Sequence record: OR352958.1
Origin: Escherichia phage AV128
Strand: one strand, 5' to 3'
Length of the DNA: 64,000 bases
Shown here: in pieces, positions 1 through 61,933 of the stretch
Layout of the letters: each line of letters opens with the position of its first letter
Position numbering within the stretch: the stretch's first letter is position 1
Position numbers and translations under genes: made by a program
The notes under the pieces: model-generated
Seen by the model: the letters and a program-made list of their open reading frames with translations, nothing else
Told to the model about the DNA's origin: nothing
The model's database searches: none

Positions 1-110
1 TGACTTTCCAATTATGTGTTAATATTTTATTCATATTATAGTTTGCTTGAGACAGCTATATCAAGTAAAATTGTGATTCCAGCTTAGTAGTGGATAAAGG
101 GTGATCTTTT

Positions 111-140
111 ATGGCCAGAAATAATCTGGCCATTTTTTTA
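111..140 (+). terminator. Rho-independent terminator
   Basis: Perfect 8-bp stem atggccag/ctggccat, 7-nt loop, followed by T6. Confidence 0.5.
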
Positions 141-159
141 ATTTAAATTCACAAAAAGT

Positions 160-187
160 TTGCCTTTCTGAAATTCTGCATTATAAT
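160..187 (+). promoter_or_regulatory. sigma70-like promoter (TTGCCT-16-TATAAT)
   Basis: -35 and -10 hexamers with 16-bp spacer, about 25 bp upstream of the 214 start. Confidence 0.45.
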
Positions 188-213
188 CATATTAACTCAA
201 AACCGGAGGTAAT

Positions 214-429
214 ATGAAACTCATCGACCGCGCCATCAAATCCATTGATAATCACTCCACAGCGATTGCTTTCGTAATGGGATTTTGTTTCACTGCTGCG
301 TTTGGCGACGTTCAAACATTCAAGTCTGTCATCTTGTGCTGGTCCATCTGGTCACTTATTTCTCTGGTTTTGATTCTTCCGATGACGTGGCTTGTTCTTA
401 CTTGTCTTGAATCTCAAGGTGAAGACTGA
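214..429 (+). CDS. small membrane protein (two hydrophobic segments, acidic C-terminus)
   Basis: GGAGG RBS 4 nt upstream of ATG; hydrophobic stretches in translation. Confidence 0.5.
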   Translation: MKLIDRAIKSIDNHSTAIAFVMGFCFTAAFGDVQTFKSVILCWSIWSLISLVLILPMTWLVLTCLESQGED

Positions 430-650
430 TGAGACTATCAATCAAAGAGCGGGTAAAGCGACCCAAAAGGAGTGAGCCAAAGGCCAAATACACATGCATC
501 GGCGGACCTTTTGACGGTCAAGCGATGTGGCTTTCAAAATCTAATCCATCGACGGTTGAGTTCAGCCTTCATGGAATGCGCGGCAGATACCTGCTAAATA
601 GAGAAACAAGTGGCAGCACATTTGTGGAGTGGAAAGAAAATGGCAAATGA
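429..650 (+). CDS. hypothetical protein
   Basis: ORF start overlaps previous stop (ATGA); same-strand block. Confidence 0.4.
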   Translation: MRLSIKERVKRPKRSEPKAKYTCIGGPFDGQAMWLSKSNPSTVEFSLHGMRGRYLLNRETSGSTFVEWKENGK

Positions 651-873
651 ATTGACTTTAACAGTACCAAAAGAAGTGATAGACAAGGCATGCGCGGATT
701 CAGTGAAAGAATTGGCTGGAGTTCTTGGAATTGAAAATGAATTCAGCGTTCAGGTGCAATTCCTTAAGGATACTCTTCAAATCAAAGAGAACAAAGAAGC
801 TGGCGGCGGTGCGCCTTTAGCTTTGGCAATAATCTATGCGGGATTAATTTTGAAGTCTGGAGGTGAACTGTGA
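640..873 (+). CDS. hypothetical protein (C-terminal hydrophobic segment)
   Basis: Internal ATG at 640 chosen over GTG at 610; start uncertain. Confidence 0.4.
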   Translation: MANELTLTVPKEVIDKACADSVKELAGVLGIENEFSVQVQFLKDTLQIKENKEAGGGAPLALAIIYAGLILKSGGEL

Positions 874-1025
874 ATCGTTGGTGCAGTTGGAAGCTGAAAC
901 GTCTCGCCTGGGCCAATGCCGCCAATTCTGCTGGCTCAATCGCTGCTGGTGTTGGGTCGATATGGGATGGTGAAGGCCGTTGGGCCTCGCTGTGTGGCAC
1001 GCGCCTATTCTTTCGTGTAAAATAA
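870..1025 (+). CDS. possible small Trp-rich protein (GTG start)
   Basis: GGAGG 4 nt upstream of GTG; 51 codons; below ORF-track size cutoff. Confidence 0.2.
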   Translation: MNRWCSWKLKRLAWANAANSAGSIAAGVGSIWDGEGRWASLCGTRLFFRVK

Positions 1026-1068
1026 TATTCACCCTTCCCATATCGGGAAGGGAATTAAAGAGGTTATC

Positions 1069-1410
1069 ATGAACAATACTTTATCACAACTGCTAATCTG
1101 GACAATCGCTGCTATCATTGGCACCGTTATTATGATGTCAAGCGCAAAGGCTGAAACGGATATTTGCGCCAGACTTATTTCTGAGAATGGCGAGATTTAT
1201 TATGGAAACTCAAAAGGTGATTACATATCACCTGAAGTTTGCGCTCAGAAGAAAGCAGAAATGCAAAAGCAATATCATGAAGATCAATCTATATCTCAAG
1301 CCGCTCTGATTGAATTAAGTATATCAGCCATCATCTTTCTAATCGTTTTTATGCTCATTATTAAACCAAATAATGACAGCAACCGTCATATTCCTCTCAA
1401 AAGAAATTAA
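1069..1410 (+). CDS. exported membrane-anchored protein (signal peptide, C-terminal TM helix)
   Basis: N-terminal hydrophobic signal ending AKA-ET, two Cys in mature part, C-terminal TM; AGAGG RBS. Confidence 0.55.
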   Translation: MNNTLSQLLIWTIAAIIGTVIMMSSAKAETDICARLISENGEIYYGNSKGDYISPEVCAQKKAEMQKQYHEDQSISQAALIELSISAIIFLIVFMLIIKPNNDSNRHIPLKRN

Positions 1411-1448
1411 GGTTATAATACGGTTGTCGACAAAACGAGGACCGTAAA

Positions 1449-3446
1449 ATGCCAAGGCTAATATTCAAAAACAACTTTGAGGTCGCGCTGGCTCAACCAA
1501 CGACGACTTCAGACACCACAATCACAATTCGCTCAGGGTCAGGCTTTCCGACCTTGGGCGCAAACGAGCGTGTAGTGGCGACAATCGTCGACGCTGCAAC
1601 AGGCCTCCAATTTGAAATCGTCACAGTAACAGCCGTGGTTGGAAACGTCCTGACCGTGCAGCGTGCACAGGAAGGTACTGCAGCGCGTGCATGGAGCGTC
1701 GGAGATTTTTTATCCATAAGGGTGACGGCTGCCATATTGACAAGCACAGTAAGGAATTTTGGAGAATTACCTTCTGGAATAAACTTAAATGCCCTTACTG
1801 GTTCTTGGTTCGGTCAATACCAGCAGTCTTCTAATTCTGCGGCTTCGCAAGTTCTGAATTATCCTGTAGCCCAATCAGGCAGCCTTGAGGTTATTTGCTC
1901 GGCAAACAACTCTGGTGACCAATCTTGCACGCAAATATACAGCACGAATCCTGACAACAAGCAGTACAAAAGAACTTATAATTCAGAAACAAGCACATGG
2001 TCTACTTGGGCTAAAATATATAACTCTTCCGACGTGATTCCAGTCTCCAATGGAGGGACTGGTGTTTCAGACACAGGATCAATAAGAAGAGCAATACTGG
2101 TTCAAGGTGTAGTTTGTAACGATCAGACGGGGCCGCAGTCGTATAACAGCTATCGTTCACCCAACAGCACCTACACTTTCAAGGTTGACAACTCAGGCCA
2201 GGTGGCCTCAATCAATACGGGTACTGAAGAGGTTGTCCCGTTCGCCGTAAGCGCTGGCGGTACAGGGGCAACTAACGCTTACGACGCTCGCATCTCATTA
2301 GGTGTGGGAAGATTCAGCGAGCAAACCAACGAGACTAAAGTTCTAGCACCCAACTTTAGCACTTACATTTACGTGAACGACACCGACTGGGGATGCTTCA
2401 GCCCTACCGTTGGCGGTCGTATTGCGTTGAGTGTGGCGAGTGGTGGTACAGGGGCAACTAACGCTGCTCAAGCACGTACTAACCTCGGCATTGGTTCCGC
2501 AGCAACATTCAACACTGTACCGTTAGCTAACGGTGGTACAGGGGCAACCTCCGACGCTGCTGCTCGCGTCAACTTGAAGGTGGATAAGCTCGTTCAAAGT
2601 TCAACTGACACTAAACTTTTAGATGGTTCAGGAGAGCATACTTTCTTTATTACAGATGGGGATTGGGGGTATTTCAATAATTCTGACTCTTCTCGAATTG
2701 CTCTACCGGTAATTAGCGGAGGTACGGGAGGGAAAACCCCAGCAGAAGGTTCTGAAAACTTAGGGGCAATGCACTGTTGGTACGGTTCCTCAGTCTACTA
2801 CGGTGGTGGTGATTTACCAACTGGTATTGGATTCTACAGCGGGGACACGTCACCTTTTCCGGGAGGTAATGGGGCACCCTTCATATATGCGGAGATAATG
2901 ACTATTGCTGAAGGTGGTCGTGGAGGTAACTGGTCCCAAATAGGGTTCTCTACTATCACATATGAAGCCCCTCGCTACAGACAAAGGACTGCTGACCCTG
3001 CTTTAATTACTAACTGGAGAGATTTCTTGATTCGTGATCTCAACACTACAGTTGACAGTAACGGTTTCATTAAAATCGCATCCCCTATCGTGAAAATCAA
3101 AGGTGACGGTGGTGCTGAGTACAACGACGAGTCTGAAGGTTGTACAGTGGAACGCATCTCGAAAGGTGTCTACCGGATTTCAGGCTGCCTCGGCTTAAAC
3201 TCTGACGCATCGTGGGGCGGCACTGACGGCGGCTTCGAGATACCACTCGACCGAAACAAGCAACCTCGTATTTGGCTGGACTATAAAGTGAATGAAGATG
3301 GATCAATTGATATTTTCACGTATCACAGAACGCACAGCAACGCACCAGTATTTGCAAGGAATAACCTTGAAGGTTATGCAGACGGAGACCCAATAGACAT
3401 ACCAAAGGATGCATTTATCTCTGTGAGGGTGCAAATGCCAAAGTAA
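1449..3446 (+). CDS. tail fibre protein with phage tail-fibre repeats
   Basis: Four copies of xGGTGATNAxxARxNLG-type motif typical of the phage tail fibre repeat family; 665 aa. Confidence 0.8.
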   Translation: MPRLIFKNNFEVALAQPTTTSDTTITIRSGSGFPTLGANERVVATIVDAATGLQFEIVTVTAVVGNVLTVQRAQEGTAARAWSVGDFLSIRVTAAILTSTVRNFGELPSGINLNALTGSWFGQYQQSSNSAASQVLNYPVAQSGSLEVICSANNSGDQSCTQIYSTNPDNKQYKRTYNSETSTWSTWAKIYNSSDVIPVSNGGTGVSDTGSIRRAILVQGVVCNDQTGPQSYNSYRSPNSTYTFKVDNSGQVASINTGTEEVVPFAVSAGGTGATNAYDARISLGVGRFSEQTNETKVLAPNFSTYIYVNDTDWGCFSPTVGGRIALSVASGGTGATNAAQARTNLGIGSAATFNTVPLANGGTGATSDAAARVNLKVDKLVQSSTDTKLLDGSGEHTFFITDGDWGYFNNSDSSRIALPVISGGTGGKTPAEGSENLGAMHCWYGSSVYYGGGDLPTGIGFYSGDTSPFPGGNGAPFIYAEIMTIAEGGRGGNWSQIGFSTITYEAPRYRQRTADPALITNWRDFLIRDLNTTVDSNGFIKIASPIVKIKGDGGAEYNDESEGCTVERISKGVYRISGCLGLNSDASWGGTDGGFEIPLDRNKQPRIWLDYKVNEDGSIDIFTYHRTHSNAPVFARNNLEGYADGDPIDIPKDAFISVRVQMPK

Positions 3447-3453
3447 TTAAATC

Positions 3454-3480
3454 AAGGCGCTGAAAAGCGCCTTTACTTTA
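3454..3480 (+). terminator. Rho-independent terminator after tail fibre gene
   Basis: Stem aaggcgc/gcgcctt, loop tgaaaa, T-rich tail. Confidence 0.5.
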
Positions 3481-3499
3481 TGCTATATTAAGTTATACT
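3472..3499 (+). promoter_or_regulatory. sigma70-like promoter (TTTACT-16-TATACT)
   Basis: Hexamers and spacing read directly; upstream of 3530 gene. Confidence 0.4.
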
Positions 3500-3529
3500 C
3501 ATTATACGTTAACAAGTGAGGTGGATGAA

Positions 3530-3811
3530 ATGAAATTTGAAGACATCGACAAGGCCCAAAAAGCAAAGGCGCTGCCTAAATATGTCATCTGTGGTATTGA
3601 CCCTGAAGATAACCGCTTGGTTTTCTTAAAGCAAGTTGATAGCAATGAATCTGGCGACGCAGCTAATTGGTGCATCCCTTTGTTTGAGACAGCAGAAGAA
3701 GCCCAGAAGGTATTGTCAGAAAGCAATTTACCTAAACACTACAGTGTCGTTTCACAAGATGACATGGCAAAATTAGTGTTTAATTTTTATGGATATGGGA
3801 GAAGATTCTAA
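3530..3811 (+). CDS. hypothetical protein
   Basis: ATG at 3530 with GAGGTGG RBS; track start 3521 is GTG. Confidence 0.45.
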   Translation: MKFEDIDKAQKAKALPKYVICGIDPEDNRLVFLKQVDSNESGDAANWCIPLFETAEEAQKVLSESNLPKHYSVVSQDDMAKLVFNFYGYGRRF

Positions 3812-5399: not shown

Positions 5400-5489
5400 T
5401 TCATCAAGTACCAAAACGCACCAAAAGACCCATGCCCTAAAAACCACACGAACGCAATAATCAATCGCCGTTACAGTTTCCAGCGTTAC

Positions 5490-5760
5490 AATTAGAAAGC
5501 GAATGATTCGATGCATAATAATATGAAACATAATGATTCGAAAGCGAATGATTGCGTGTAGGATAATATCGGTGGGGATTATTATATATGTCGGTAATTT
5601 CGCATGCGTACTATTTTCGGGCGAAGGGTCGGCATATTCCTCGTTTTAGTTCGGAACGAAGGGAAAGTTTTGCGCCTTTATAAAACAACGACTTACGCGA
5701 CCCGCCTTAACGGTCCGATATAGGTGTCTATATAAAACAAGGACTTGCGCGATGTTCTCC
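5490..5760 (+). repeat. cluster of short direct repeats in non-coding DNA
   Basis: AAAGCGAATGATT twice, TATAAAACAAsGACTTrCGCGA twice, several CGAAGGG copies. Confidence 0.5.
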
Positions 5761-5916
5761 ATTTAACGTAATACCTGTTATGCGAACTAAGGAGCATCTC
5801 GAAGAAGATTATGCGACGACGAAGGGAAGGATAAAGGAGTTTTCGCGTAGGAGCGCACCGAGATAGGGACGAAGAAAAGCCGCGACTAAGCGCGGCCTAT
5901 TAGTAACGGAAGGGTA

Positions 5917-6207
5917 TTATAAGGAGACGATTTTAAAATAAGTCACTTCGCCGCCGAGTTGCGGTACAGCGATATATTCGCCGCCGATTTCGGTAATCGT
6001 ATAGACGAAGCCGTTAATCGTTACGCGGCAGGATACGATGTCCTCGTCGCGATACTTGTAAAGGTCGAGGAAGTTGATCGGCTCATAAATAGACTCGATA
6101 GTTGCGTCGACGTTAGAGAGATAAACGCTCTCTAAGGTTTCGCCAAATACGTTAGAGTTTTCGGAAGTCTCGACGCGAGCGGAACGGATAGCGGCTAAAG
6201 TAATCAT
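5917..6207 (-). CDS. small protein, paralog family member A
   Basis: AGGAG RBS; shares VY..NVD.TIE and NG...EIG motifs with 6493-6795 and 7020-7304 products. Confidence 0.55.
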   Translation of the reverse strand: MITLAAIRSARVETSENSNVFGETLESVYLSNVDATIESIYEPINFLDLYKYRDEDIVSCRVTINGFVYTITEIGGEYIAVPQLGGEVTYFKIVSL

Positions 6208-6274
6208 AATAATCTCCTAGTTGGTCGGGCGGGTAGCGACCTATTCGCTACCTCATCCCCTCTCGATATAAAAC

Positions 6275-6303
6275 ATTATAGTCTTAGTGTACGAAGAAGT
6301 AAA
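6275..6303 (-). promoter_or_regulatory. sigma70-like promoter (TTTACT-17-TATAAT) for paralog A
   Basis: Hexamers on minus strand; flanking sequence conserved with the other two paralog promoters. Confidence 0.5.
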
Positions 6304-6322
6304 GCACTTTTCGTTATTTTTT

Positions 6323-6475
6323 CTATTTATTTAAAGCGCGTCTCCCAAGTTCGACGACCCAAGCGGCGGCATCTTCCGCCTTATTAAATTCGTATAGATG
6401 CTTCTTATCTTCGAAGACGTAAAATAAAATACGTCCGAACTTATTAGCCTTCGCGCTTAACTCGATAGTTTTCAT
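6323..6475 (-). CDS. small hypothetical protein (50 aa)
   Basis: AAGGAG RBS 6 nt upstream; below ORF-track cutoff. Confidence 0.4.
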   Translation of the reverse strand: MKTIELSAKANKFGRILFYVFEDKKHLYEFNKAEDAAAWVVELGRRALNK

Positions 6476-6492
6476 CTTCTACTCCTTTTTCG

Positions 6493-6795
6493 TTATTTTG
6501 CGATAAAATATTTATAAGCCTTATCGCCTTCTACGTCGATATACTCGACGATAATTAACGCTTCGCCGCGCGGCGTAACCGTCTCGATAAGGGTAACGGC
6601 TTCGTCGTCGGTCTTCGCGAAGCGGATGGCACTACGTTCGGCGTACTTAATATCGTCGAAGGAAAGGCCGACGAAAGCGACCGCGCGGACCTTAATGATG
6701 GTGGATTCTAGTTCCGCGTTAACGGCGGCGATAAGAGAACGAACGGTTAAACGGTCTTCGTCGTAAGTAATGATAGAAGAGATTAAAGTGGTCAT
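6493..6795 (-). CDS. small protein, paralog family member B
   Basis: ATG at 6795 with GGGAG RBS; track ORF extends to 6852. Confidence 0.55.
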   Translation of the reverse strand: MTTLISSIITYDEDRLTVRSLIAAVNAELESTIIKVRAVAFVGLSFDDIKYAERSAIRFAKTDDEAVTLIETVTPRGEALIIVEYIDVEGDKAYKYFIAK

Positions 6796-6851
6796 AATAA
6801 AACTCCCGATGCTAGTAGAAGGAAGGGCCATCGCCCGTCTCGATATAAACA

Positions 6852-6879
6852 AGTATACGCGAGTGTACGAAGAAGTAAA
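6852..6879 (-). promoter_or_regulatory. sigma70-like promoter (TTTACT-16-TATACT) for paralog B
   Basis: Near-copy of the 6275-6303 promoter element. Confidence 0.5.
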
Positions 6880-6923
6880 GAAAAAAGATAAAATAATTTA
6901 TCTCATTTTTATCGAAAAAGTGC

Positions 6924-6951
6924 TTTACTTTTTTCTACACTATATTATAAT
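6924..6951 (+). promoter_or_regulatory. sigma70-like promoter (TTTACT-16-TATAAT) for paralog C
   Basis: GTGCTTTACTT...TATAAT conserved with the two minus-strand copies; divergent from 6852-6879. Confidence 0.5.
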
Positions 6952-7019
6952 GTACTCATATCGGGACGGGATGAGTTAACGAATAGGTCGTTAACGCCTC
7001 TCCCAACTAGGAGTTTAAA

Positions 7020-7304
7020 ATGGCTATTCTTAACGTTTCTTCTATTCGTAACGCTATCGTCGAGAACTACGGCGTAAAACAAATTTTATCCGAAGTCTAC
7101 GCCGCGAACGTAGACCAAACTATCGAGGCGGGTGGGGTAACGGTCGCCGAGGCGTTTAAACTTTACGCGGCGTTACCGGAATCGGACCGCGAAGCCTTCG
7201 AAGTAAACGTTAACGGATATTTCTTCGAAGCGGTCGAAATCGGTAATATCTTACTCGTTATGGGCGAAGAAGAATTTGAGACCTTCTCCCTCGTCGAAGC
7301 GTAA
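7020..7304 (+). CDS. small protein, paralog family member C
   Basis: AGGAG RBS; protein motifs shared with paralogs A and B. Confidence 0.55.
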   Translation: MAILNVSSIRNAIVENYGVKQILSEVYAANVDQTIEAGGVTVAEAFKLYAALPESDREAFEVNVNGYFFEAVEIGNILLVMGEEEFETFSLVEA

Positions 7305-7384
7305 GAGAGGATTTTTAGAGCGTCGTGCGCGGCGCTTTAATAAAATTCTTTCGCGCCTAGCGCCCTAACAAATAGGAGTTTATT

Positions 7385-8011
7385 ATGGTTAGCTTAAATC
7401 GCTTTTCTACTAGCGGCGACGTTATCGCAACTAAGACCGCCGACCTCGTTGCATTCTATAATGCAAATTCCGGCTCAAAACCGATTAAGAAGTTTGCGGA
7501 CCGCCGGACCGCCGAGACTCGCGTAATCGCGTTAATCGAGTCCTTAAACGCGCTCGATGAGCCGTCCAACGAGTCGCCCATCCCTGACGCGAAGCCGCGC
7601 GAGGAAGTGTCCAGCGATGTAAAAACGCATAAGGCGCGTGCGGTCGTTAAAAAGGCCGAGCCGACCCAGGAAGAACTCGATGCGATGAGCGATGAAGAGT
7701 ATGAAGCCTTCGTTAAGAGCGGCTTAAACGATAGTGCAAATTGCGTAGTGCAAAATGGAACTCCTTCCCATCGCCGTTCGAATAGCGAAGGTATTGCAAA
7801 AAGTTGGGATAACAAGGAAGTGGCGCAAAAGCGTCTCACCCGTAACGGCGTTATTGTCGAGGGTGTAGGAGAGTTCAAATCGGTCCGCGTAGCGTTTGCT
7901 GCGCTGGGCTTACCAGATAGCAAGCACATTCGCTTCCGCATGAAGCTTAAAGAAGCTGGACGCTTGAACTTCGAGTTCGGCAACAAGTCCTACACCTTCC
8001 AGATCATCTAA
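7385..8011 (+). CDS. hypothetical protein
   Basis: AGGAG RBS; contains two motif copies (7731, 7746) near its 3' end. Confidence 0.5.
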   Translation: MVSLNRFSTSGDVIATKTADLVAFYNANSGSKPIKKFADRRTAETRVIALIESLNALDEPSNESPIPDAKPREEVSSDVKTHKARAVVKKAEPTQEELDAMSDEEYEAFVKSGLNDSANCVVQNGTPSHRRSNSEGIAKSWDNKEVAQKRLTRNGVIVEGVGEFKSVRVAFAALGLPDSKHIRFRMKLKEAGRLNFEFGNKSYTFQII

Positions 8012-8017
8012 TCGAAT

Positions 8018-8041
8018 GGCGGCCCTTCGGGGTCGCTTTTC
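8018..8041 (+). terminator. Rho-independent terminator
   Basis: Stem gcggccc/gggtcgc with ttcg loop and TTTT tail, 7 nt after stop. Confidence 0.5.
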
Positions 8042-8061
8042 ATAGTGCAAATTGGTGGCTT

Positions 8062-8325
8062 ATGAACACGCTTATTCTCATCGCTACGTTGTCCATCGGA
8101 AGTGGTCGCGCCTTATCCCTTTATGACCATAGTGCAAATTGCGCTTACCCAACGCGCGTTGCGGCGATAGTTAATAGTGCAAATCGAATGCTATTTGAGA
8201 CTTGTTGGCGGGTAGATAACGAGAAAGGGCGCATCGTCTTAGGTTATAGTGCAAATCTGCTGGTGGAGTCGTTCGATTGGACGGCGGAAGGTCGTAAATT
8301 GTTACGTAAAGTGACTAAAAGATGA
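8062..8325 (+). CDS. doubtful ORF inside motif array
   Basis: GGTGG RBS and bracketing terminators, but three SAN tripeptides are translations of the DNA motif. Confidence 0.2.
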   Translation: MNTLILIATLSIGSGRALSLYDHSANCAYPTRVAAIVNSANRMLFETCWRVDNEKGRIVLGYSANLLVESFDWTAEGRKLLRKVTKR

Positions 8326-8384
8326 CTTATAATAATACACTTTCTAACGCGTTTATGGTTGTAGCCTTCCCCGTCGTATTACCG

Positions 8385-8426
8385 ATGGCCCTAGAAGTTG
8401 AGAAAATGTGTTCTAGGGCCATTTTA
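8385..8426 (+). terminator. strong Rho-independent terminator
   Basis: Perfect 12-bp stem atggccctagaa/ttctagggccat, 14-nt loop, T-rich tail. Confidence 0.6.
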
Positions 8427-8439
8427 TAGTGCAAATTGG

Positions 8440-8913
8440 CTAGTGGCGGGAGAATTGCTCACCCTCTTTGGCTGCCTCTCCAAAATCCTTGTAGAAATCG
8501 TCCATGGAACGGCCCATTTTACTATTGCCATTTTCATCAATCATCGTGATGCCGTAGATGATATTCAGTTCACGGATAGCATTAAGCTTGGCTGATGCCG
8601 CGACTTCTGGATCACGCACAAGCTTCACTAAATTGTGGATGGAACTCTTTACGCTCCACAATTCCTTCAATGGCATCTCTTCCATACGCTTTTTGTAGCG
8701 CATCTTGTAGTACGGATTGCGCTGCGTGCAGAGGATTCGCTGGCCAGTGTAGTTATCGGTCGCAACCTCCATGCCAAATACTAGTGCAAAAGCTGCGCGC
8801 ATGTCATGGCCCTGAATAACAAGGTCAATGAACTCATCGAATAAAGCCTGATTGTGCTCTGCAAATCGCGGGTCTTCAAAGTCCTCAGGCATCGCTACAT
8901 AATCTTGACTCAT
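8440..8913 (-). CDS. hypothetical protein (about 157 aa)
   Basis: Long ORF downstream of a strong minus-strand promoter; no Shine-Dalgarno; start 8913 or 8928. Confidence 0.45.
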   Translation of the reverse strand: MSQDYVAMPEDFEDPRFAEHNQALFDEFIDLVIQGHDMRAAFALVFGMEVATDNYTGQRILCTQRNPYYKMRYKKRMEEMPLKELWSVKSSIHNLVKLVRDPEVAASAKLNAIRELNIIYGITMIDENGNSKMGRSMDDFYKDFGEAAKEGEQFSRH

Positions 8914-8948
8914 AGTGCAAAATCCCATAGTGCAAATTAATAGTGTGA

Positions 8949-8977
8949 ATTATACAATGATTGAACATTATATTCAA
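8949..8977 (-). promoter_or_regulatory. sigma70-like promoter (TTGAAT-17-TATAAT)
   Basis: Near-consensus hexamers on minus strand about 35 bp upstream of the 8913 start. Confidence 0.5.
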
Positions 8978-9140
8978 GTGCAGATTGATGTTCAAATTGG
9001 CTGTAAACGTACACAAACCATAGTGCTGAATGAATATCGGACCGTGGTGCGTGGTGTACTGTTTGATACGTATAAAAGAAATCCATCCCTTTCGCCGCTT
9101 GTTATGCAAATCAATGACTTAGCCGCTGCTGGATGGTTGA

Positions 9141-9430
9141 AGCGTATCATGAAGTATCATCCGTATTGCCGCAAGTCTTTGTTTTTACTTATATCTTACG
9201 GATGATACGTATAAATATAAGTTTAGTATAAGTATGAGGATGTAGAAAAAAATTAATTTAAATTAATTCAAAATGGAGTTAATTGTTTTTTTTCAAAGTT
9301 GTATAAAGTATAGCGGCGACGCGTATCATCCGTATCATCCGTAAGATGTACCACTGAACCCAGTCGCGGCGCACCATAGAAGTGTGTGGAGTGAACTACG
9401 GATAGGTCCAAATCTTACGTCATTATACGC
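9141..9430 (+). repeat. iteron-flanked AT-rich element A
   Basis: TACGGATGATACG at 9197; AT-rich core 9241-9300; inverted CGTATCATCCGTATCATCCGTA at 9322; homologous to 61620-61900. Confidence 0.65.
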
Positions 9431-9539
9431 TTAAATTCTATGCGTAAGGTTAGCCAGCTAACTATATCTCCTTTTTAATTTCAAGCGGCAATCCCATAGA
9501 CGGCGCAGCCTACAGGCCCACACACCACGGTACACGCTC

Positions 9540-9720
9540 CAATTCCTAGTGATTCCCTCTACAATCCCACAGCACCACAGTACAATATTCTTCCAAATAC
9601 GCACACATATTCAAGACACACAAATCACGTCACAATCCTCGTTTCACACCATCCTCTAATAGATTTACACAAATCAATCGCTTTATCCGATAATAAAGCC
9701 TCACAAACAACAGGCAAACA
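9540..9720 (+). other. G-depleted CA-rich non-coding tract
   Basis: About 14 G in 180 nt on plus strand by hand count; CACA-type runs; no ORF. Confidence 0.6.
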
Positions 9721-9738: not shown

Positions 9739-9756
9739 TCTTAACATTAGTCAAAA

Positions 9757-10209
9757 TTAAAATATAAAATTCTTCACTCCTAGCCTTTTAAATTCTTTCC
9801 TTAACATTATATTAAACTTCTTCAATTTAGTTTTATTCATCCTTAGCGGATTGTAGGTGAACACCTTTTCTATTACTTCCTCGCTCATTTTTGAGCGCAT
9901 ATTAGTTGCGTAATAGTTCTTGAACGTATAAATAAGGTAATTTGCTTCAAGCTTAAGTTCAATTACTTCCTCCGATTCATCAAGCTCAAGCAATCCTCTT
10001 TGCGTAAGAATATCTCTTAATATATCCTGACATTTCTTGCAATCACCTTTGCCTAAAAGCGAGTCGATATAATCGCCGCTGACGCGCTCATCACCGAAAT
10101 ATGTTGCGCGACCGCAAAGGCTTTGCACTTCTCCTTCGTCAAAGTAATGCGCACGATGGCCCCACTTCGGTATGGCCCAACCAGCGGCGATAAGCCGTTT
10201 GCCCATCAC
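9757..10209 (-). CDS. hypothetical protein (Cys-containing)
   Basis: ORF in tightly packed co-oriented early block. Confidence 0.4.
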   Translation of the reverse strand: MMGKRLIAAGWAIPKWGHRAHYFDEGEVQSLCGRATYFGDERVSGDYIDSLLGKGDCKKCQDILRDILTQRGLLELDESEEVIELKLEANYLIYTFKNYYATNMRSKMSEEVIEKVFTYNPLRMNKTKLKKFNIMLRKEFKRLGVKNFIF

Positions 10210-13510: not shown

Positions 13511-13588
13511 AATCATTTCTCCTTTGCTTGATGAACTAAGTATAATACAGGCAAATAAAAAGGCAAGCATTTAGCTCACCTTTTTGAA

Positions 13589-14758: not shown

Positions 14759-14843
14759 AATTCACCTCACTTGTTCGTCTTGATGAAAAGAGTATAAGTA
14801 TTGATAAAAGAAAAGGCAAGCATTTAGCTCACCTTTTTGATAT

Positions 14844-17331: not shown

Positions 17332-17979
17332 TTATCCTGTGGCCTGCATATTGCGTACATACTTCTGCTCTAATGAATAGATGAAGTCGGCGACAGTCAA
17401 TCCCTTCGTGTGCCATTCATACATGGTGAAGCCTGTATTCAGGAAATAGCCGCGCACCTTGTCCATCGCTTCAGCTTCCTCCATTGAAGCCATCAGCGCG
17501 GCGACGTTGTCATAAGAAGGCACAAATCCCTTCTTGCGTAGCGCATTGCGCAAATCTTTAGTTCTGAAGCCAATCTTGCAAGGGTCATCACGACCAGTGG
17601 ATGATGCAACCTTTGGAAGAGCAAGGAACTCTTTAAGGAACATTGCAATGTTCAAGTCGCCTGCGTCATCAAGCTTCTGGATTCGGTTGCGACCGCGCCC
17701 CTTGAATTCACTCGCACGAGGGTGAGCGCCAAAACAGTGCGCCCCTTCCAGTTTAGGGTCGATGATCATTACATCTTTACCAATGCGAAGCTCTACGTAG
17801 TAAAGATAAGACTCATCGACAAGCTTTGTGCGCTTGCAAGTGATTGAGTCCTTATCATAACCAAAGCCGCGCAACACTGTTGAAATCATCCGGTTCATTT
17901 CTTCGCCGTGAACATCACTCTCTTTGTTCAGTTCACCAAGATGTTGAAAGAATTTAGCGATGTTGATTGCTTTATTCAT
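17332..17979 (-). CDS. hypothetical protein (215 aa)
   Basis: ORF immediately downstream of the helicase gene. Confidence 0.45.
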   Translation of the reverse strand: MNKAINIAKFFQHLGELNKESDVHGEEMNRMISTVLRGFGYDKDSITCKRTKLVDESYLYYVELRIGKDVMIIDPKLEGAHCFGAHPRASEFKGRGRNRIQKLDDAGDLNIAMFLKEFLALPKVASSTGRDDPCKIGFRTKDLRNALRKKGFVPSYDNVAALMASMEEAEAMDKVRGYFLNTGFTMYEWHTKGLTVADFIYSLEQKYVRNMQATG

Positions 17980-19649
17980 CAGAATTCATCCTTATCTCTT
18001 CCCAAAGAACGTTTACGCTCAATAACCTTCTTCAAGAATTCAATATCTTCAGGGTCAGACTCATCGCGGATAAGATACGCTAAGATGGTCATCAAATCAG
18101 AAATGTATTCACCTGCTTCATTCTTAATCAGCGGCGTAAAGTAACCACGCTGGTTGCGATAGGTTGCAGGCTCAAATCCAAGCTTCGACATGTGCGGCGC
18201 AAGGGTACGTGAGAAAGGCGACTTGCCACACTTAGCTCTGAATCCCATAGCGATTGCACCACTGGTAATGTGCCAGCGTCCGCTGTGATGTCGGTCATAA
18301 GGCGCGGTGATGACGACTTCAACAAGGTCGTTGTCGACCATCTCATCACGGATAACGCCGCGAGCACGTTCCATTTCGTTCTTGCTGAACTCAGTAAGCA
18401 TGCGAGACGTTTCACCAACAAAAGCGTTGTAACCTGCTTCGCCGTGTTTCTCCATCCACGCAGCACACTCAGCCATCAACTGCCAAACGTCTTCTTTCAA
18501 AGTGGAAAGGTCAGCTTGGAAGTCTTTAGACCAGTTCGGTTGCCCGTCCTTGTCAGCGAGTTGGCCAACAAAGATAGGGTAAACACGACGGTTGCCCGTA
18601 TCGTCACGCTGCATGCCTGCGTATTCGTTTCCGTCCATGATAGCAATCCACTGGCGTGGTTTAACCTGCGTATCTTCAAATTTGAAGTCCAGGTCATCTT
18701 CCGTCTTAGTCAGGAATGCTTTCATGTTTTCGATGTCAGCCTTTTTAAAGCCTGTCATCTCGCCAACGTTCGCGATAATTGAGCGACCAGTAATAGCTCG
18801 CAAGAACGGGTTGAAGTTCTGCGCGGCCAAGTTCAACGGAATCGGTGTTGCGTGGCGGTCGTTCATAATGGCTTCGCAAAGTAGCTTGCTAAAATAACTC
18901 TTCCCTGCGTTCTGGCCGCCGATGAGCGCAATGGAGATTGGCGCTTGACAGCCAGGGTTGGTCAGGCGGTTATAGAGCGATAGCCAAAAATACACACCGA
19001 TTTGTCGGTTTAACTCTGTATCGAACGGTCGGAATAGCTCGATAAGGTATTTCTCAATGCGCGCAGTACCGTCCCATTCAGGCAGCTTCTTGTAGAAGAA
19101 GTCCATCAGGTCGTCACGCTGATAACGCATGGCCCATTCCTTATAGGACTGAGCTACCTGACGTGAGTTTGGGTTGGACAGTCCTGCTGCGTCGACAGCG
19201 GCAACTATCTCTGTGACTTCCAACGTCCGGTCGGTGAATGTTTCGCCGCGATGGTCGACTAAGCGCCCACGAAAAGTATCTTTGTGAGGGAATGGAACAA
19301 CGCCGCTTCCCTTATCAAACAACGCGTCGAAAACCGCATAACGGTTCATGTCACTCGTCCGGTCCGCCTGAAGAACAAAATCATCTTTCGTCGGTTTGTA
19401 GTGAGGGAACTTGATTACCTGAAGTGAGGCGAGCAAACGTGCTCTTTCAACCAAGTCTTCTTCACCGTAGCATTCCATGCGCTCTGCATCTTTCTCAACA
19501 GCCTTGTGCTGGAGGCTGATTTTAGCTCTGGTGCCTTGCTGCTCTGCCGCTTGCATTTCTTCTGAAACACCAGCGTCTTGAATTTCGTCAAAGATTGCAC
19601 CAAATTCATCACCTGTATCCTCTGGAAGATTGTCATGTTCAATTGACAT
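17979..19649 (-). CDS. replicative helicase with Walker A P-loop (possibly D5/P4-type SF3)
   Basis: IALIGGQNAGKSYF Walker A; 556 aa; SF3 family assignment is a guess. Confidence 0.6.
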   Translation of the reverse strand: MSIEHDNLPEDTGDEFGAIFDEIQDAGVSEEMQAAEQQGTRAKISLQHKAVEKDAERMECYGEEDLVERARLLASLQVIKFPHYKPTKDDFVLQADRTSDMNRYAVFDALFDKGSGVVPFPHKDTFRGRLVDHRGETFTDRTLEVTEIVAAVDAAGLSNPNSRQVAQSYKEWAMRYQRDDLMDFFYKKLPEWDGTARIEKYLIELFRPFDTELNRQIGVYFWLSLYNRLTNPGCQAPISIALIGGQNAGKSYFSKLLCEAIMNDRHATPIPLNLAAQNFNPFLRAITGRSIIANVGEMTGFKKADIENMKAFLTKTEDDLDFKFEDTQVKPRQWIAIMDGNEYAGMQRDDTGNRRVYPIFVGQLADKDGQPNWSKDFQADLSTLKEDVWQLMAECAAWMEKHGEAGYNAFVGETSRMLTEFSKNEMERARGVIRDEMVDNDLVEVVITAPYDRHHSGRWHITSGAIAMGFRAKCGKSPFSRTLAPHMSKLGFEPATYRNQRGYFTPLIKNEAGEYISDLMTILAYLIRDESDPEDIEFLKKVIERKRSLGRDKDEF

Positions 19650-20959: not shown

Positions 20960-22042
20960 CTATTTTATGCCACCTGCACGACGATTTATCATGTCAAGTT
21001 GATTCTCAATATAAGGCATGACGATTGCTTCAACAAAAGCAGTCCAACCTTTCTTGCCTTCCCCTTTACGGTGACAGTCGTGGGCGCAACCGAACACAAA
21101 CTCATGCTCTGCACCAGGGATAGGGCCGCGAAAGTACGCGCCATACGGGTCGCCGTTGGTGTGCTCTTCACCCCAAGGACAGATTATGCGGCACTTGCCT
21201 GACATGTTCTCGATGACGTCGCCATCAGACCCTTCACCCATCTTGTTGCGCGCAAGAATTTGCTGGGCTATCTTATACCAAACAGCATCGTACTTGTATT
21301 CATCGACGTCAATTTGAATCTCACGCTTTTGCGGCATTACAACGTGAAAGCCGAACGCCTGACAGATGTCTTCGATGGTGTAGCGCAAGGAGTAGTCTGC
21401 ATGGACAAGTCGGCAGCGAAACGGGTCGCCGTTCTCATCGACATATTTATAGGGGCCGTCGTGAGTCACACGCTTATTGTTGATGCACCCAGGAACACGG
21501 CCCACGCGCGTTACGTCTTTAATCGTGTTGTCGCCGCCCTTCTTGAGTACCATGTTAACGAAAGACCCAAGGAACGCTTTGAACTGAATAAGATGGTCAA
21601 TCGGTTCTTTAAAGAAGTACCACAGCTGGTGGTTGTTCGGTGATGTCTCGACGATGACAGTCGGCTTCAGTCGCTCGAAAAAGAATTCCAAATCTAAATC
21701 GCCTTTGGACCCTTTACCGTGGCCGATGTCGTCGACCATCATCGCCATACCGTGACCAAAGGCCGACTCTGTACGCCAGTATCGCATCTCACCCGTCTTT
21801 GGGTTGGGAGACTTACGCATTGAACTGATGCACGCATAGCCGTTTTGGTGCTGCATGAGCGGCTTGCCCAACTTCCAAGGCTTAGGCCAGAAGCTGCTGT
21901 TGATCTTCTTGCCGCGCTCGTCGGTCTGTACCGTTGCTTCAGGAGCAAACACCGTCATGACGCGCTCATCTTCTGGGATTCCTCTTTGGAGTTCTGTTAA
22001 AAACTCTTCAATTATTTTTGCTTCTTCTCTTAAACTAGCCAT
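20960..22042 (-). CDS. putative primase-polymerase (archaeo-eukaryotic primase-like) with C-terminal Cys/His cluster
   Basis: hhhDD-like MAMMVDDIG and SxxNxHxxW-like ETSPNNHQLWYFF motifs; GAAGGAAAG RBS. Confidence 0.45.
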   Translation of the reverse strand: MASLREEAKIIEEFLTELQRGIPEDERVMTVFAPEATVQTDERGKKINSSFWPKPWKLGKPLMQHQNGYACISSMRKSPNPKTGEMRYWRTESAFGHGMAMMVDDIGHGKGSKGDLDLEFFFERLKPTVIVETSPNNHQLWYFFKEPIDHLIQFKAFLGSFVNMVLKKGGDNTIKDVTRVGRVPGCINNKRVTHDGPYKYVDENGDPFRCRLVHADYSLRYTIEDICQAFGFHVVMPQKREIQIDVDEYKYDAVWYKIAQQILARNKMGEGSDGDVIENMSGKCRIICPWGEEHTNGDPYGAYFRGPIPGAEHEFVFGCAHDCHRKGEGKKGWTAFVEAIVMPYIENQLDMINRRAGGIK

Positions 22043-23872: not shown

Positions 23873-24712
23873 ATGGCCGAAGCAATCAAAGTATTATCTA
23901 AAGAAGAAAAACAAGCAGCCGCAGCAGAACGTCGTCGCGTGGCTGAAGAAAAACGCCTGGCTAAAAAGAAAGAAGCCGAAGAAAAACGCCAGAAGCGTGA
24001 GCAGGAAAAACAAGCCAAGCGTGAAGAAGCCGCGCTGAAGCGCAAACAGGCTGCTGATGAGAAGGCTCAGAAGCGTGCTGAAGAAGCAGCTAAGAAAGCT
24101 AAAGAGCGTGCAGAAAAGGCTGCTGCTAAGAAAGCAGAGCGTGAAGCCGCTAAAGCAGCAAAAGAAATCGAAAAGGCAAAGGCCAAAGAAGAAGCCAAGC
24201 GCCTGAAAGCTGAACAAGCTGCTGCTAAGAAAGCAGAGCGTGATCAAGCCCGTGCTGCAGCAAAGGCCGAAAAAGAGAAGGCTAAAGAAGAAGCGAAAGC
24301 GAAACGCAAGGCAGAGCGTGAAGCTGCTAAGATCGCGGCGAAAGAAGCTGCAGAACAGCAAAAAGAACAGCGTAAGAAAGAAGCTGAAGAACGTCGCAAA
24401 GCCATCGCAGAGCGCAAGGCTGCCAAAAAGGCAAACGGTCAGCGCCGTGCAAAAGCTACTCACTTCATCTACACTGGCAACGGCCTGAGCCAGCCGCAGG
24501 AGCACTCCACCCGTGGGCGCGTTCTGGCGGCGATCAAAGAAGGCGAAGTTGGCGTGGCGCAGTCTATCGATGAGCTGGGCGAGAAAGTTAAAGATCAACT
24601 GTTTGGCGCTTCCGTTCGCTCCTACCTGAGCAAGCTGGAAGAGATGGGCCACATCGAGTTTGTCGATGTTGAATCCAACGACGATGCCGAAGACGGTGAT
24701 CAAGCGGAATAA
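23873..24712 (+). CDS. Lys/Glu/Ala-rich coiled-coil protein with globular C-terminal domain
   Basis: About 200 aa of KEA low-complexity repeats; about 100-bp tandem duplication in DNA; AAGGA RBS; track start 23867 is GTG. Confidence 0.6.
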   Translation: MAEAIKVLSKEEKQAAAAERRRVAEEKRLAKKKEAEEKRQKREQEKQAKREEAALKRKQAADEKAQKRAEEAAKKAKERAEKAAAKKAEREAAKAAKEIEKAKAKEEAKRLKAEQAAAKKAERDQARAAAKAEKEKAKEEAKAKRKAEREAAKIAAKEAAEQQKEQRKKEAEERRKAIAERKAAKKANGQRRAKATHFIYTGNGLSQPQEHSTRGRVLAAIKEGEVGVAQSIDELGEKVKDQLFGASVRSYLSKLEEMGHIEFVDVESNDDAEDGDQAE

Positions 24713-58323: not shown

Positions 58324-59463
58324 TTAGATACCAGTCATACGGACGACTGCGAAAGGACGCTTGAGCAGAACGCCTGCTGTTGCGTTTGCGTAGTCTTCAA
58401 CGTAGCTCTTAGCACGTTTCTCAACGCCCAGAGTCATGAACTTAGTCTGAACCAGCTGGCTGAATACGGAACCATCGTCGCTTGAGCCATCAATTGAGGA
58501 ATCGATGTGATCAGCGTACAGATATGCCACGTTCAGGAAAGTCGGGTCACTGCCAAGTGCGCCGTTGAGTTCCGGTGCAGATTTGATCTTCATCTTCGGA
58601 TAAGTCTGGGTGATCCAGTCACGTACAGAAATACCGAAGTCAGTGGTGTTTGACAGCCAATCAATAGAGTTGGTCGGCAGCGCCAGAGTCATATCAACCT
58701 TCTCTGGATCAATCTGGTCCTGAGAGTTGACACGGATTTGACGAACCATCAAACGGATGTCTGCAGTCACCTGTTGGAAGGTCGCAGTGGCCCAGCCGGA
58801 AGTGGTGTTTGAAGTCATCGCTGCTGGCAGGTTTGGATCATTCAGGAAGCCGAACGTGCGGTTGTTCCCGTTGTACCAGCCATAGAAGCCGATTGCGTTA
58901 CGCATGATTTCCAGAGATACAGCAGCCTGCTGGCGCTTGGTCTCTGCGGAGTTCAGACGCATCGCAGACGCGCGACCTTCTTCCAGCATACCGACTGCCA
59001 TGCCCATTTCACCGCGAACGATGGAACGTCGCTCAAAGTTTACGTTCCAGCTTGCCAGAGGAATAGAGGTGAAATCACCATATTCAACTGCGGTGCCAGC
59101 TGGTTCAACGATGCCCTGAACGATTTCCGCATCTTCCCACTGACCAACGGTGTCAATGCCAACCAGCTCGTCGATTTTACGAGCAGCGGTCATGATTTTG
59201 ACGAAGCCAGGCAGCCACTGTTGCAGGAACTGCAGCGGGGTCGGGATTGATGGCGTGGTCTGCGGCGCAGTAAACGCGGCGTCACCTACGCGGAAAGCGC
59301 CTGCACGGTTTAAGTGCTCAATCTGATCACGCACAATCGCGGAATCAAACACAATACCGATACGAGCAAGCTGGGAAACAGCCGCGTCGGTGACGGATTG
59401 CATATCAAAAGGGCGCACCTTGCTCGCTGGGAGGCGAGAGTGTGTTTGGCTAATGCGAGTCAT
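58324..59463 (-). CDS. putative major capsid protein
   Basis: 379 aa, downstream of scaffold-like gene; by gene order and size. Confidence 0.55.
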
Positions 59464-59477
59464 TATTCACCTGCCTA

Positions 59478-60095
59478 TTAACGAGTCAATTGTACAATGG
59501 TATAAGTGGAAGACTGGACGCTTGGGCCGGAAAGGGCAATAGTCGTCGGGTCAATCACAATACCGCCTGGGATGGCAACCATGCCAGTTGGCAATGAGCC
59601 AGTATAGGCGATAATTGCACCAATAGGCAAGTTGTTCGGGTTGTTACCGCTGGAAATGCCTTTAGGTACATAAGCAAGCAGGTCGCCATAGTTAAGCGTC
59701 TGCGGACTGGTGCTTGGGTTGAATACTTCAACTACGAGGCCCGTGCACATATCGTAGAACTCGCCTTCGCTATATTGAGGCAGAACCATGCTGGCACCCA
59801 AAGGACCAGTAGAGTTGCCATACAGCGCGTAACGCTTGCTATTGCCGAGGATGCCGTAGTAGTTAGTGCCGCCCAGCTCAACTTCAAAGTCCTGCGCGCC
59901 CAAAGTTTTGGTTTGACCAGTACCCATTAAGGATACGTCAGTCTTAAAACCGAACACACGGCTGATGGCGTTTACGTTTGCGCCTTCGTTAGCGTTGGCA
60001 ATTCGGCCTGGCTTCCCACGCTGTGGGCCGTCGCGAACGATGTCGCCAGGAAAGCCAGTTGTATATTGACGGCCTACACTAGTTTGGAAAGTCAT
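59478..60095 (-). CDS. hypothetical head protein
   Basis: Between scaffold-like and capsid genes; start trimmed to ATG 60095. Confidence 0.4.
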   Translation of the reverse strand: MTFQTSVGRQYTTGFPGDIVRDGPQRGKPGRIANANEGANVNAISRVFGFKTDVSLMGTGQTKTLGAQDFEVELGGTNYYGILGNSKRYALYGNSTGPLGASMVLPQYSEGEFYDMCTGLVVEVFNPSTSPQTLNYGDLLAYVPKGISSGNNPNNLPIGAIIAYTGSLPTGMVAIPGGIVIDPTTIALSGPSVQSSTYTIVQLTR

Positions 60096-61516: not shown

Positions 61517-61619
61517 CCACCCTCAAATAAGTATTGTGTATTATATCTAATGAAAAAAACTTAGGCAAACAATAATTATGGTTTGAATATGTATAACAAC
61601 CGATATAGCCGCGCCTTAA

Positions 61620-61900
61620 TTAGTGTGATACGGATGATACGGATAAAATGAGGCGTATTTTTATCCGTATCGGTGTATAAGCCGCGCTATCACTGGTGTG
61701 CTACGGATGATACGGATGATACGGATACTTTTCATATATAAGAGTTTATAAAAAAAATAAAATTAAATTAGATATATAATTTTAAATTAATTTATTTGAA
61801 TTCCTATAAAGTATCGCGGCAACGCGTATCATCCGTATCATCCGTAAGATTCTTTTGAAAACAACTACTTACTTGATACGGATGATACGTCATTATACGC
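61620..61900 (+). repeat. iteron-flanked AT-rich element B (paralog of element A)
   Basis: GATACGGAT tandem units at 61627 and 61702, AT-rich core 61741-61800, inverted CGTATCATCCGTATCATCCGTA at 61825, GATACGGATGATACG at 61875. Confidence 0.65.
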
Positions 61901-61933
61901 GTAAAACCCTGCGGCAATCCATTGCCAGGCGAT

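Follow-up and report, generated by a model that had tools for sequence, protein, structure and literature searches.

The window analysed here, a stretch of 64,000 nucleotides from Escherichia phage AV128 (OR352958.1), belongs to a Wifcevirus, a PB1-like myovirus of E. coli and Shigella with a genome of 66–72 kb. It carries two paralogous elements, A (~9140–9430) and B (~61600–61900), which lie in direct orientation 52,503 bp apart (Table 1). Element A adjoins the small terminase gene (terS), whose identification draws on the annotation of phage Mansfield, on the match of its product to the E217 TerS structure (PDB 7UXE; E 7e-33) and on phrog_4783. Element B stands between head genes of the minus strand, where it is preceded by a MuF-like head-morphogenesis gene, a gene for a 329-aa fibre-like protein and a 45-aa ORF, and followed by the genes for the prohead protease, a virion protein and the major capsid protein. 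The same window encodes a RepB-type primase and a VapE-like SF3 helicase.

Table 1. Positions of elements A and B, their component parts and the associated genes in the window
Feature	Position	Strand	Remarks
Direct terminal repeat (DTR)	5424–9274	-	~3.85 kb; holds gp001 and the small terminase gene
Small terminase (TerS) gene	8440–8928	-	directly downstream of A in gene sense
Nested dyad outer arm GGACCGTGGTGCGTGG	9039–9054	+	partner 9518–9533, axis +11.5 bp from genome end
A, outer-left repeat pair GCGTATCATGAAGTATCATCCGTATTG	9142–9168	-	overlaps gp001 ATG (9148–9150)
A, class II motif GCGGC (cttGCGGCaat)	9168–9172	-	more minus-strand copies at 9122 and 9094
A, inner-left arm ATCTTACGGATGATACGTAT	9193–9212	+	17-nt exact inverted repeat with 9331–9347
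A, AT-rich core	9213–9321	.	9213–9312: 83% AT, dG -104.5
Physical genome end	9274/9275	.	...TTCAAAAT/GGAGTTAATTG...; left DTR boundary, packaging start
A, block shared with B TATAAAGTATAGCGGCGACG	9302–9347	+	46 bp; 44/46 identical to 61805–61850
A, GCGGC inside the 46-bp block	9313–9317		
A, inner-right arm CGTATCATCCGTATCATCCGTAAGAT	9322–9347		repeats on minus strand; part of 46-bp block
A, outer-right part	9366–9430	+	GCGGC 9366–9370, TACGGATAG 9397–9405, ATCTTACGTCATTATACGC 9412–9430
TACGGAT in A	9159-, 9197+, 9328-, 9337-, 9397+		
VapE-like SF3 initiator-helicase gene	17979–19649	-	PF05272, PF16793; candidate repeat-binding protein
RepB-type primase gene	20960–22042		upstream of helicase gene
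Major capsid gene	58324–59463		after protease gene; PHROG 264
Prohead protease gene	60098–61516	-	first gene downstream of B; PHROG 3778, E 1e-172
B, outer-left part	61601–61685	+	GCCGC at 61608 and 61681
B, outer-left repeats	61627–61644; 61661–61671		tandem GATACGGATGATACGGAT; inverted TTATCCGTATC
B, inner-left arm GCTACGGATGATACGGATGATACGGATAC	61700–61728	+	three tandem repeats; 22-nt exact inverted repeat with 61825–61846
B, AT-rich core	61729–61804	.	dyad axis near 61774; 61716–61815: 86% AT, dG -100
B, block shared with A	61805–61850	+	GCGGC 61816–61820; inner-right arm 61825–61850
B, outer-right part TTGATACGGATGATACGTCATTATACGCG	61872–61915	+	then GCGGC 61911–61915
TACGGAT in B	61629+, 61638+, 61663-, 61702+, 61711+, 61720+, 61831-, 61840-, 61877+		

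Two homologous dyad modules

A and B are homologous modules of dyad symmetry. Their relationship had been proposed in a sequence-only reading of the window, and pairwise alignment of the two regions confirms it: 9302–9347 and 61805–61850 agree at 44 of 46 bases (BLAST E 6e-16), all matches with E<0.01 obtained on searching A against the window are A itself or B, and TACGTCATTATACGC is the same in both copies (9416–9430 and 61886–61900). The repeats that the elements contain are likewise in excess of what shuffled sequence yields. The 9-mer GATACGGAT has eight exact occurrences in the window against 0.38 expected, a count reached by none of 100 shuffles, and all of them fall within the two elements; its 7-mer core, TACGGAT, occurs 18 times, 14 of them within A (5) and B (9), in both orientations. 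The tandem and inverted arrangement of the 9-bp unit that had been described for A is clear in B, which has seven exact copies, whereas A has only one.

In both elements the repeats form exact inverted arms, of 17 nt in A (9193–9209 and 9331–9347) and of 22 nt in B (61702–61723 and 61825–61846), on either side of an AT-rich core. The gap between the arms of A measures ~115 bp, and not the 60 bp first given for its core, which also contains an 18-bp perfect palindrome (AATTAATTTAAATTAATT, 9251–9268). The core of B is the most AT-rich 100-bp window of the 64 kb (86% AT) and that of A the second (83% AT), and they are also the two least stable, with free energies of -100 and -104.5 kcal/mol against a window mean of -138 (sd 8.2). 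Third in AT content comes 9741–9840 (80% AT), at the 3' end of an ORF array running toward A.

Several more familiar identities were considered for these sequences and set aside. A repetitive element of the host, named beforehand as a finding that would undermine the case, was rejected on the grounds that a search of 5,426 complete E. coli genomes gave no match to B. No known RNA family was detected in Rfam, where the single match was a sub-threshold one attributable to chance. DnaA boxes were also discarded, the best match by eye (TTATCCGTA) agreeing at 7 of 9 positions and being devoid of the CACA core.

The genome end at the centre of element A

The physical end of the genome and the start of packaging lie at the centre of A. 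Three GenBank records originating from two laboratories, those of phages Mansfield, WFH and WFC, begin at the same base, position 9274 of the window, and read downwards from it, which identifies A as the left boundary of the direct terminal repeat and as the packaging start. In the Mansfield and WFH records, the two ends correspond to 9274 and 5424 of the window, with identical boundary sequences, and the terminal repeat therefore corresponds to 5424–9274 on the minus strand. Positions 1–3673 of the Mansfield record are annotated as a DTR predicted by PhageTerm (PMC6753283), and WFH and WFC were deposited including terminal repeats of ~3.7 kb (PMC6563267). It is thus highly probable that A contains the packaging-initiation end, from which packaging presumably proceeds into terS, whose start (8928) lies 346 bp further down. 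The functions first listed for the element (origin, centromere-like or operator site, recombination site) had omitted this genome end, which is the firmest fact about it.

The end is placed 4.5 bp from the axis of the inner inverted repeat of A and is surrounded by nested inverted repeats with axes at -4.5, +11.5 and +11.5 bp, the latter two being contributed by the outer-left repeat pair, with its inverted partner at 9420–9430, and by the outermost arms listed in Table 1. The end sequence, AAAATGGAGTTAATT, shows no variation among five Wifceviruses, the divergent WFC being one of them, and is kept in a metagenomic sister lineage, L136. Only A contains the cut-site sequence AAAAT/GGAGTTAA, and none of the Wifcevirus records starts at B. 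The possibility that B represents the second DTR boundary was rejected, since the boundary at 5424 is accompanied by other repeats, unrelated to those of A and B and devoid of GATACGGAT. When the elements are compared with packaging sites, a virion DNA end within the site and a neighbouring small terminase gene are hence encountered at A, with no end known at B and no terminase gene adjoining it; packaging sites normally occur once per genome, and the module occurs twice, though its cut-site sequence is confined to A.

The terminal repeat and its boundaries contain further repeated sequences. Two tandem 34-bp repeats (ATT.GAAAGCGAATGATT...ATAATAT; 5491–5524 and 5536–5569), which lie 70–145 bp inside the right DTR boundary and are unrelated to the repeats of A and B, may constitute a packaging-termination signal. 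The motif CATAGTGCAAA recurs within the terminal repeat and just upstream of terS (7741, 8038, 8244, 8422 and 8908–8935); three copies of TTGCACTATG precede terS in sister lineage L136 (15190–15220), promoter P041 of Pbunavirus 14-1 contains CCCATAG..CCCCATAGTACAAT, and the motif is probably promoter-associated. Inside the terminal repeat, a 27-nt inverted repeat of 89% complementarity (6285–6311 and 6916–6942) and a 24-nt direct repeat (6257–6280 and 6834–6857) jointly bracket ~600 bp.

Conservation of the twin sites across genera

The search of related genomes suggested along with the first description of the elements located both of them in 28 of 28 Wifcevirus records. Among these records, identity ranges from 93 to 99.8% for B and from 85 to 99% for A, which in half of them is conserved only to ~9347, and the outer-right part of A differs between Wifcevirus subgroups. 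A 15-mer scan of IMG/VR returned mostly chance singletons, with multiple matches only in ECML-117, FEC19 and WFC.

Equivalent pairs are present in three other genera. In Serratia phage MTx (Myosmarvirus; TerS 35% identical), the DTR start given by PhageTerm falls within the A-type copy, upstream of terS, and an element homologous to this copy takes up the gap of 343 bp ahead of the protease gene; the MTx repeats are CACTTTTC and CGAAAAG, and the A-type copy has additional repeats of its own next to the cut. The two Pbunavirus copies share ~330 bp of homology, one being situated upstream of terS and the other in the 514-bp gap that precedes the protease gene, and the repeats of both copies are GGTAATTTGG. 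Pantoea phage PA1 (Kylevirus) has the same site pair, built on ATAACCGTT with a period of 9. The four genera thus use four different repeats (TACGGATGA, ATAACCGTT, GGTAATTT and CACTTTTC/CGAAAAG), which are alike in A and B within each genome. In the more distant Aeromonas phage Gekk3-15, an A-type site lies between the primase gene and terS, and a B-type site is absent at the syntenic position before the protease gene, indicating that the twin is not universal. In each of the five lineages examined, terS directly follows the A-type site.

The record of Pbunavirus PS44 starts at the point published for phage JG024 as a 'putative packaging site at 59,376' (PMC10913387), which falls inside the Pbunavirus A-type element. 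Consistent with this start, the records of Ab28 and BrSP1 end ~375 bp after the helicase gene, as compared to 371 bp from gene to end in PB1, and a 'single fixed termination' has been reported for Ab27–29 (PMC4482731). The PS44 record (GenBank KM434184) was used for its start position only. Its end (68299–68871) is a 573-bp copy of the internal segment 1939–2511, and not of the start of the record; this duplication looks like an assembly artefact rather than a terminal repeat, and PS44 was accordingly rejected as a DTR-containing record.

Beneath the divergence of the repeats, the eight elements of the four genera share the pentamer GCGGC, present in two to four copies per side in all of them and oriented, 5' to 3', outwards from the core. 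On the upstream side (in gene sense), the eight elements add up to 19 GCCGC and one GCGGC; downstream, they contain 21 GCGGC and no GCCGC. This polarity opposes the local G/C skew. The pentamer is common across the window (~2.4 per 500 bp; one more copy lies to the right of A, at 9485) and its density in the elements is only about twice the window average, so that the claim is limited to its polarity. A twin site before the head operon, with genus-specific repeats and a universal polar GCGGC, is conserved in four genera. A mirror-image strand skew also surrounds A in every genus (9039–9062 and 9480–9680 in the window; 58,600–58,800 and 59,200–59,500 in PB1; the MTx and Gekk3-15 junctions). The strand running 5' to 3' toward the A core is G/T-rich for 200–300 bp on each side, with Chi-like GTGGTG strings, and protection from RecBCD, R-loop formation and a strand preference of the helicase are among its possible meanings.

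The persistence of the pair at the same two positions in four genera, under diverged sequences, argues for selection on binding and not for mobility. The direct orientation of the copies and their near-identical 46-bp block had suggested a recombination site or deletion between the copies, and would suit recombination substrates or relics of mobile elements at large, be they recombinase sites, the remains of homing or direct repeats prone to deletion. No recombinase or transposase gene is found nearby, however, essential genes lie between the copies, and all 28 Wifcevirus records keep both copies and show no rearrangement at either of them, making this explanation very improbable. Nothing in the analysis supports a centromere-like site.

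Both copies immediately precede packaging or head genes in gene sense, which raises the alternative of a transcriptional control region (operator, enhancer and promoter) serving two late operons, gp001–terS and protease–scaffold–capsid, in which the repeats would bind a phage regulator and the genome end in A would be incidental. Intergenic AT-rich motifs were suggested by Garbe et al. (2010) as possible phage sigma factor recognition sequences (PMC3008698), a -10-like block (GCTATACTTT/GCGATACTTT) is common to A and B, and ONT-cappable-seq places start P040 of Pbunavirus 14-1 inside the A-type copy, right after the repeats. Nevertheless, no start was mapped to the corresponding part of the 14-1 B copy, whose -10 is degenerate, implying that the shared part is not simply a promoter, and the 14-1 protease promoter, P014, lies downstream of the module. 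A promoter scan detected no sigma-70-like promoter within the two elements of the window, WFC has not kept the TATAAAGTAT block in its A copy, and there are only two copies of the module for many late operons. Mirror symmetry and outward-pointing GCGGC are, moreover, not expected of a promoter. The operator role contemplated by the sequence-only reading is consequently weak, and we consider it improbable that transcriptional control explains the module.

A candidate initiator and the proposed dual role of element A

Among the proteins encoded in the window, the VapE-like helicase stands out as a candidate for binding the repeats. Its sequence matches SaPI1 Rep1 (PDB 7PDS) with an E-value of 4e-11, and a Foldseek search with its AF2 model (pLDDT 83.8) returns 7PDS as the best match, through all six chains (E 1e-16 to 3e-14) and over ~480 columns. 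The predicted structure is thus Rep1-like, its structural homology to SaPI1 Rep1 extending over the full length of the modelled helicase. The C-terminal unit of the model (residues 436–504) follows a helix-strand-helix-helix-strand-strand order with pLDDT values of 80–90, as in a predicted winged helix. Domain-wise alignment reveals that this C-terminal domain is poorly conserved between genera, a variability that makes it compatible with either class of motif, the 8–9-bp repeats or GCGGC.

The position of the helicase gene varies among relatives. In PB1 and MTx it directly precedes the A-type copy; in the window it lies ~8.7 kb from A, with small ORFs in between, and the SaPI-type disposition of an origin immediately downstream of rep is hence not observed. 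Gekk3-15 carries beside its A-type site a gene for a bifunctional primase/polymerase that yields no alignment with the helicase, and no helicase homologue was found within the 25-kb stretch of PA1 that was examined. Dozens of metagenomic contigs of 66–72 kb also encode the helicase. Among the small early ORFs of the window, a 35-bp repeat (AAAAGGCAAGCATTTAGCTCACCTTTTTGA) present at 13553–13587 and 14806–14840 with 94% identity looks like a duplicated terminator. Elsewhere in the window, an 89-nt tandem coding repeat (74% identical) at 24110–24297 encodes a Lys/Ala/Glu-rich segment.

The closest parallel to the module and its helicase is provided by the Rep-ori systems of SaPIs and PICIs (SaPI1 Rep1, SaPIbov1; Ubeda 2007/2012; Qiao 2022, PMC9371898). 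In SaPI origins, which lie immediately 3' of rep, 6–12 short iterons surround a central AT-rich region, each flank holding two or more of them in an orientation opposite to that of the other flank and loading one hexamer (PMC9371898). This iteron layout is reproduced by the TACGGAT repeats that flank the AT cores of A (5) and B (9), with units of 9 bp and not of 5–6 bp. The likeness extends to an SF3 initiator-helicase for which Rep1 is the best match, to its predicted C-terminal winged helix and the primase gene upstream of it, to the opposite orientations of short repeats around a central AT-rich region and, in PB1 and MTx, to a site immediately 3' of the helicase gene. The systems differ in that the host of the module is a virulent 68-kb myovirus instead of a satellite, in the presence of two copies, one of which is a genome end, in the combination of 8–9-bp repeats with a universal pentamer as opposed to SaPI iterons of 5–6 bp, and in the 8.7 kb that separate the Wifcevirus site from the helicase gene.

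Paired sites are also known in other replication systems. The ori and crr of satellite phage P4 are two distant cis sites, 4.5 kb apart and both required, which have a set of short repeats in common, present in both orientations, and to which the alpha protein, an SF3 primase-helicase, binds via its C-terminal DNA-binding domain. A and B, in contrast, lie 15.6 kb from each other by the shorter path around the genome, and neither of the P4 sites is known to serve for packaging. Phage SPP1 possesses two origins, oriL and oriR, both of which combine an AT-rich region with the same initiator-binding repeats and one of which is located in the late genes, but the SPP1 initiator belongs to a different family (G38P) and neither origin is known to coincide with pac. 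Strong mirror symmetry, an unwinding-prone core and the presence of two copies, as in P4 ori/crr and SPP1 oriL/oriR, are ordinary for origins and unusual for packaging sites.

The reading that we favour, with a probability of roughly 0.45, is that A and B are twin origin-type initiator sites for the helicase, copy A doubling as the terminase cut site. The module would be a replication-origin-type binding site of a self-loading SF3 initiator-helicase, whose C-terminal winged helix would read the repeats; one hexamer would load on each side, and the core would melt. The terminase would make the packaging-initiation cut at 9274/9275, 4.5 bp from the dyad axis of A, creating the left genome end and the left boundary of the 3.85-kb repeat that carries terS. 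Element B, which is devoid of GGAGTTAA and precedes the protease/capsid operon, would serve as another origin or as a partner site for initiator binding. Of the functions envisaged at the outset, a replication origin has the best support as the common function of A and B, given the iteron/AT-core dyad and the Rep1-like helicase encoded by the phage, and it is retained here as one part of this composite. We infer the identity of the repeat binder, the melting and firing of the core, the use of the bound module by the terminase and the role of B, and the binder could instead be a small uncharacterised phage protein. In sister lineage L136 the repeat core is similar, yet both TerS and the helicase have diverged (68% and 75% identity), and the two proteins co-occur in all relatives. 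Given that they co-occur and co-diverge, comparative genomics cannot separate them as binder.

The position of the cut almost on the dyad axis and the constant proximity of A to terS fit equally well a module dedicated to the terminase, in which a TerS ring would bind the 8–9-bp repeats on both sides and the large subunit would cut the centre of A. Element B would in that case be an uncut accessory site, serving as a synapsis partner of the T4 kind or in the regulation of the head operon by TerS. Such a platform is the main rival identity for the shared module, possible but less likely than an initiator site. It would account for a genome end 4.5 bp from the axis of A and at the equivalent place in MTx and Pbunavirus, for the location of A directly upstream of terS in the five lineages examined and for the extra A-specific repeats that abut the MTx cut, and the ~9–11 repeats of B approach the subunit number of the decamer formed by the E217 TerS homologue (7UXE). 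In P1 pac, SPP1 pacL-pacC-pacR and lambda cosN-cosB-Nu1, the cut takes place between repeated protein-binding motifs beside the small terminase gene, as it does in A, and P1 pac and SPP1 pacL/pacC/pacR offer precedents for repeats flanking a central cut. Those sites, however, are unique and are not known to be strongly AT-rich dyads; the module has an uncut twin, and its product is an exact long terminal repeat (with headful packaging in Pbunavirus).

Two distant sites for a small terminase have a precedent in T4, where the 'twin-ring pac synapsis' model of gp16 (Black) proposes that the small terminase bridges two distant homologous sites, in genes 16 and 19, before packaging starts (PMC9611059). 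A and B are likewise homologous sites at a distance, but the T4 sites are short, lie inside genes and have no repeat/AT-core layout, and the model is considered T4-specific. Packaging sites are normally unique and asymmetric, whereas the module is strongly dyad-symmetric and occurs twice; a very AT-rich unwinding core is unusual for a pac site, and B is better conserved and richer in repeats than A, yet no record or published end maps to it. In addition, the E217 TerS is reported to lack appreciable DNA binding in vitro (PMC9611059).

If the sites are initiator-bound, packaging initiation might also be coupled to the origin, a doubtful proposition in which the terminase would recognise the initiator-bound, melted core of A, or be recruited to it, and would cut the dyad axis, with B firing or pairing with A. 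Bound by the same protein, B would then be a second origin, or would pair with A to signal concatemer readiness.

In the PB1-like phages, no origin has been defined or experimentally mapped, and all that is known of the packaging signal is the mapped position of an end; the E217 terminase study considered that packaging might be T4-like and dispense with a pac site. Unexplained AT-rich boxes and intergenic motifs had been noted earlier in JG024 (PMC3008698), and the end positions were already known, but no description was found of the paired dyad layout, nor of the fact that it coincides with the genome end. Pbunavirus, which ranks among the genera most often employed in Pseudomonas phage therapy, belongs to this group, as do the Wifceviruses, which replicate very fast. 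The analysis of the twin sites provides base-level candidates for the origin and the packaging signal, coinciding at one locus, and a second and better-conserved copy among the head genes in four genera. The cutting of exact long terminal repeats, the reader of the genus-specific repeats and the coupling of replication to packaging become testable as a result, and for genome rebooting and engineering the sites mark where not to insert and which cis sites to keep. If packaging initiation is indeed coupled to the origin, Pbunavirus, Wifcevirus, Myosmarvirus and Kylevirus would have in common a combined ori/pac system that has not been described before, each genus using recognition repeats of its own.
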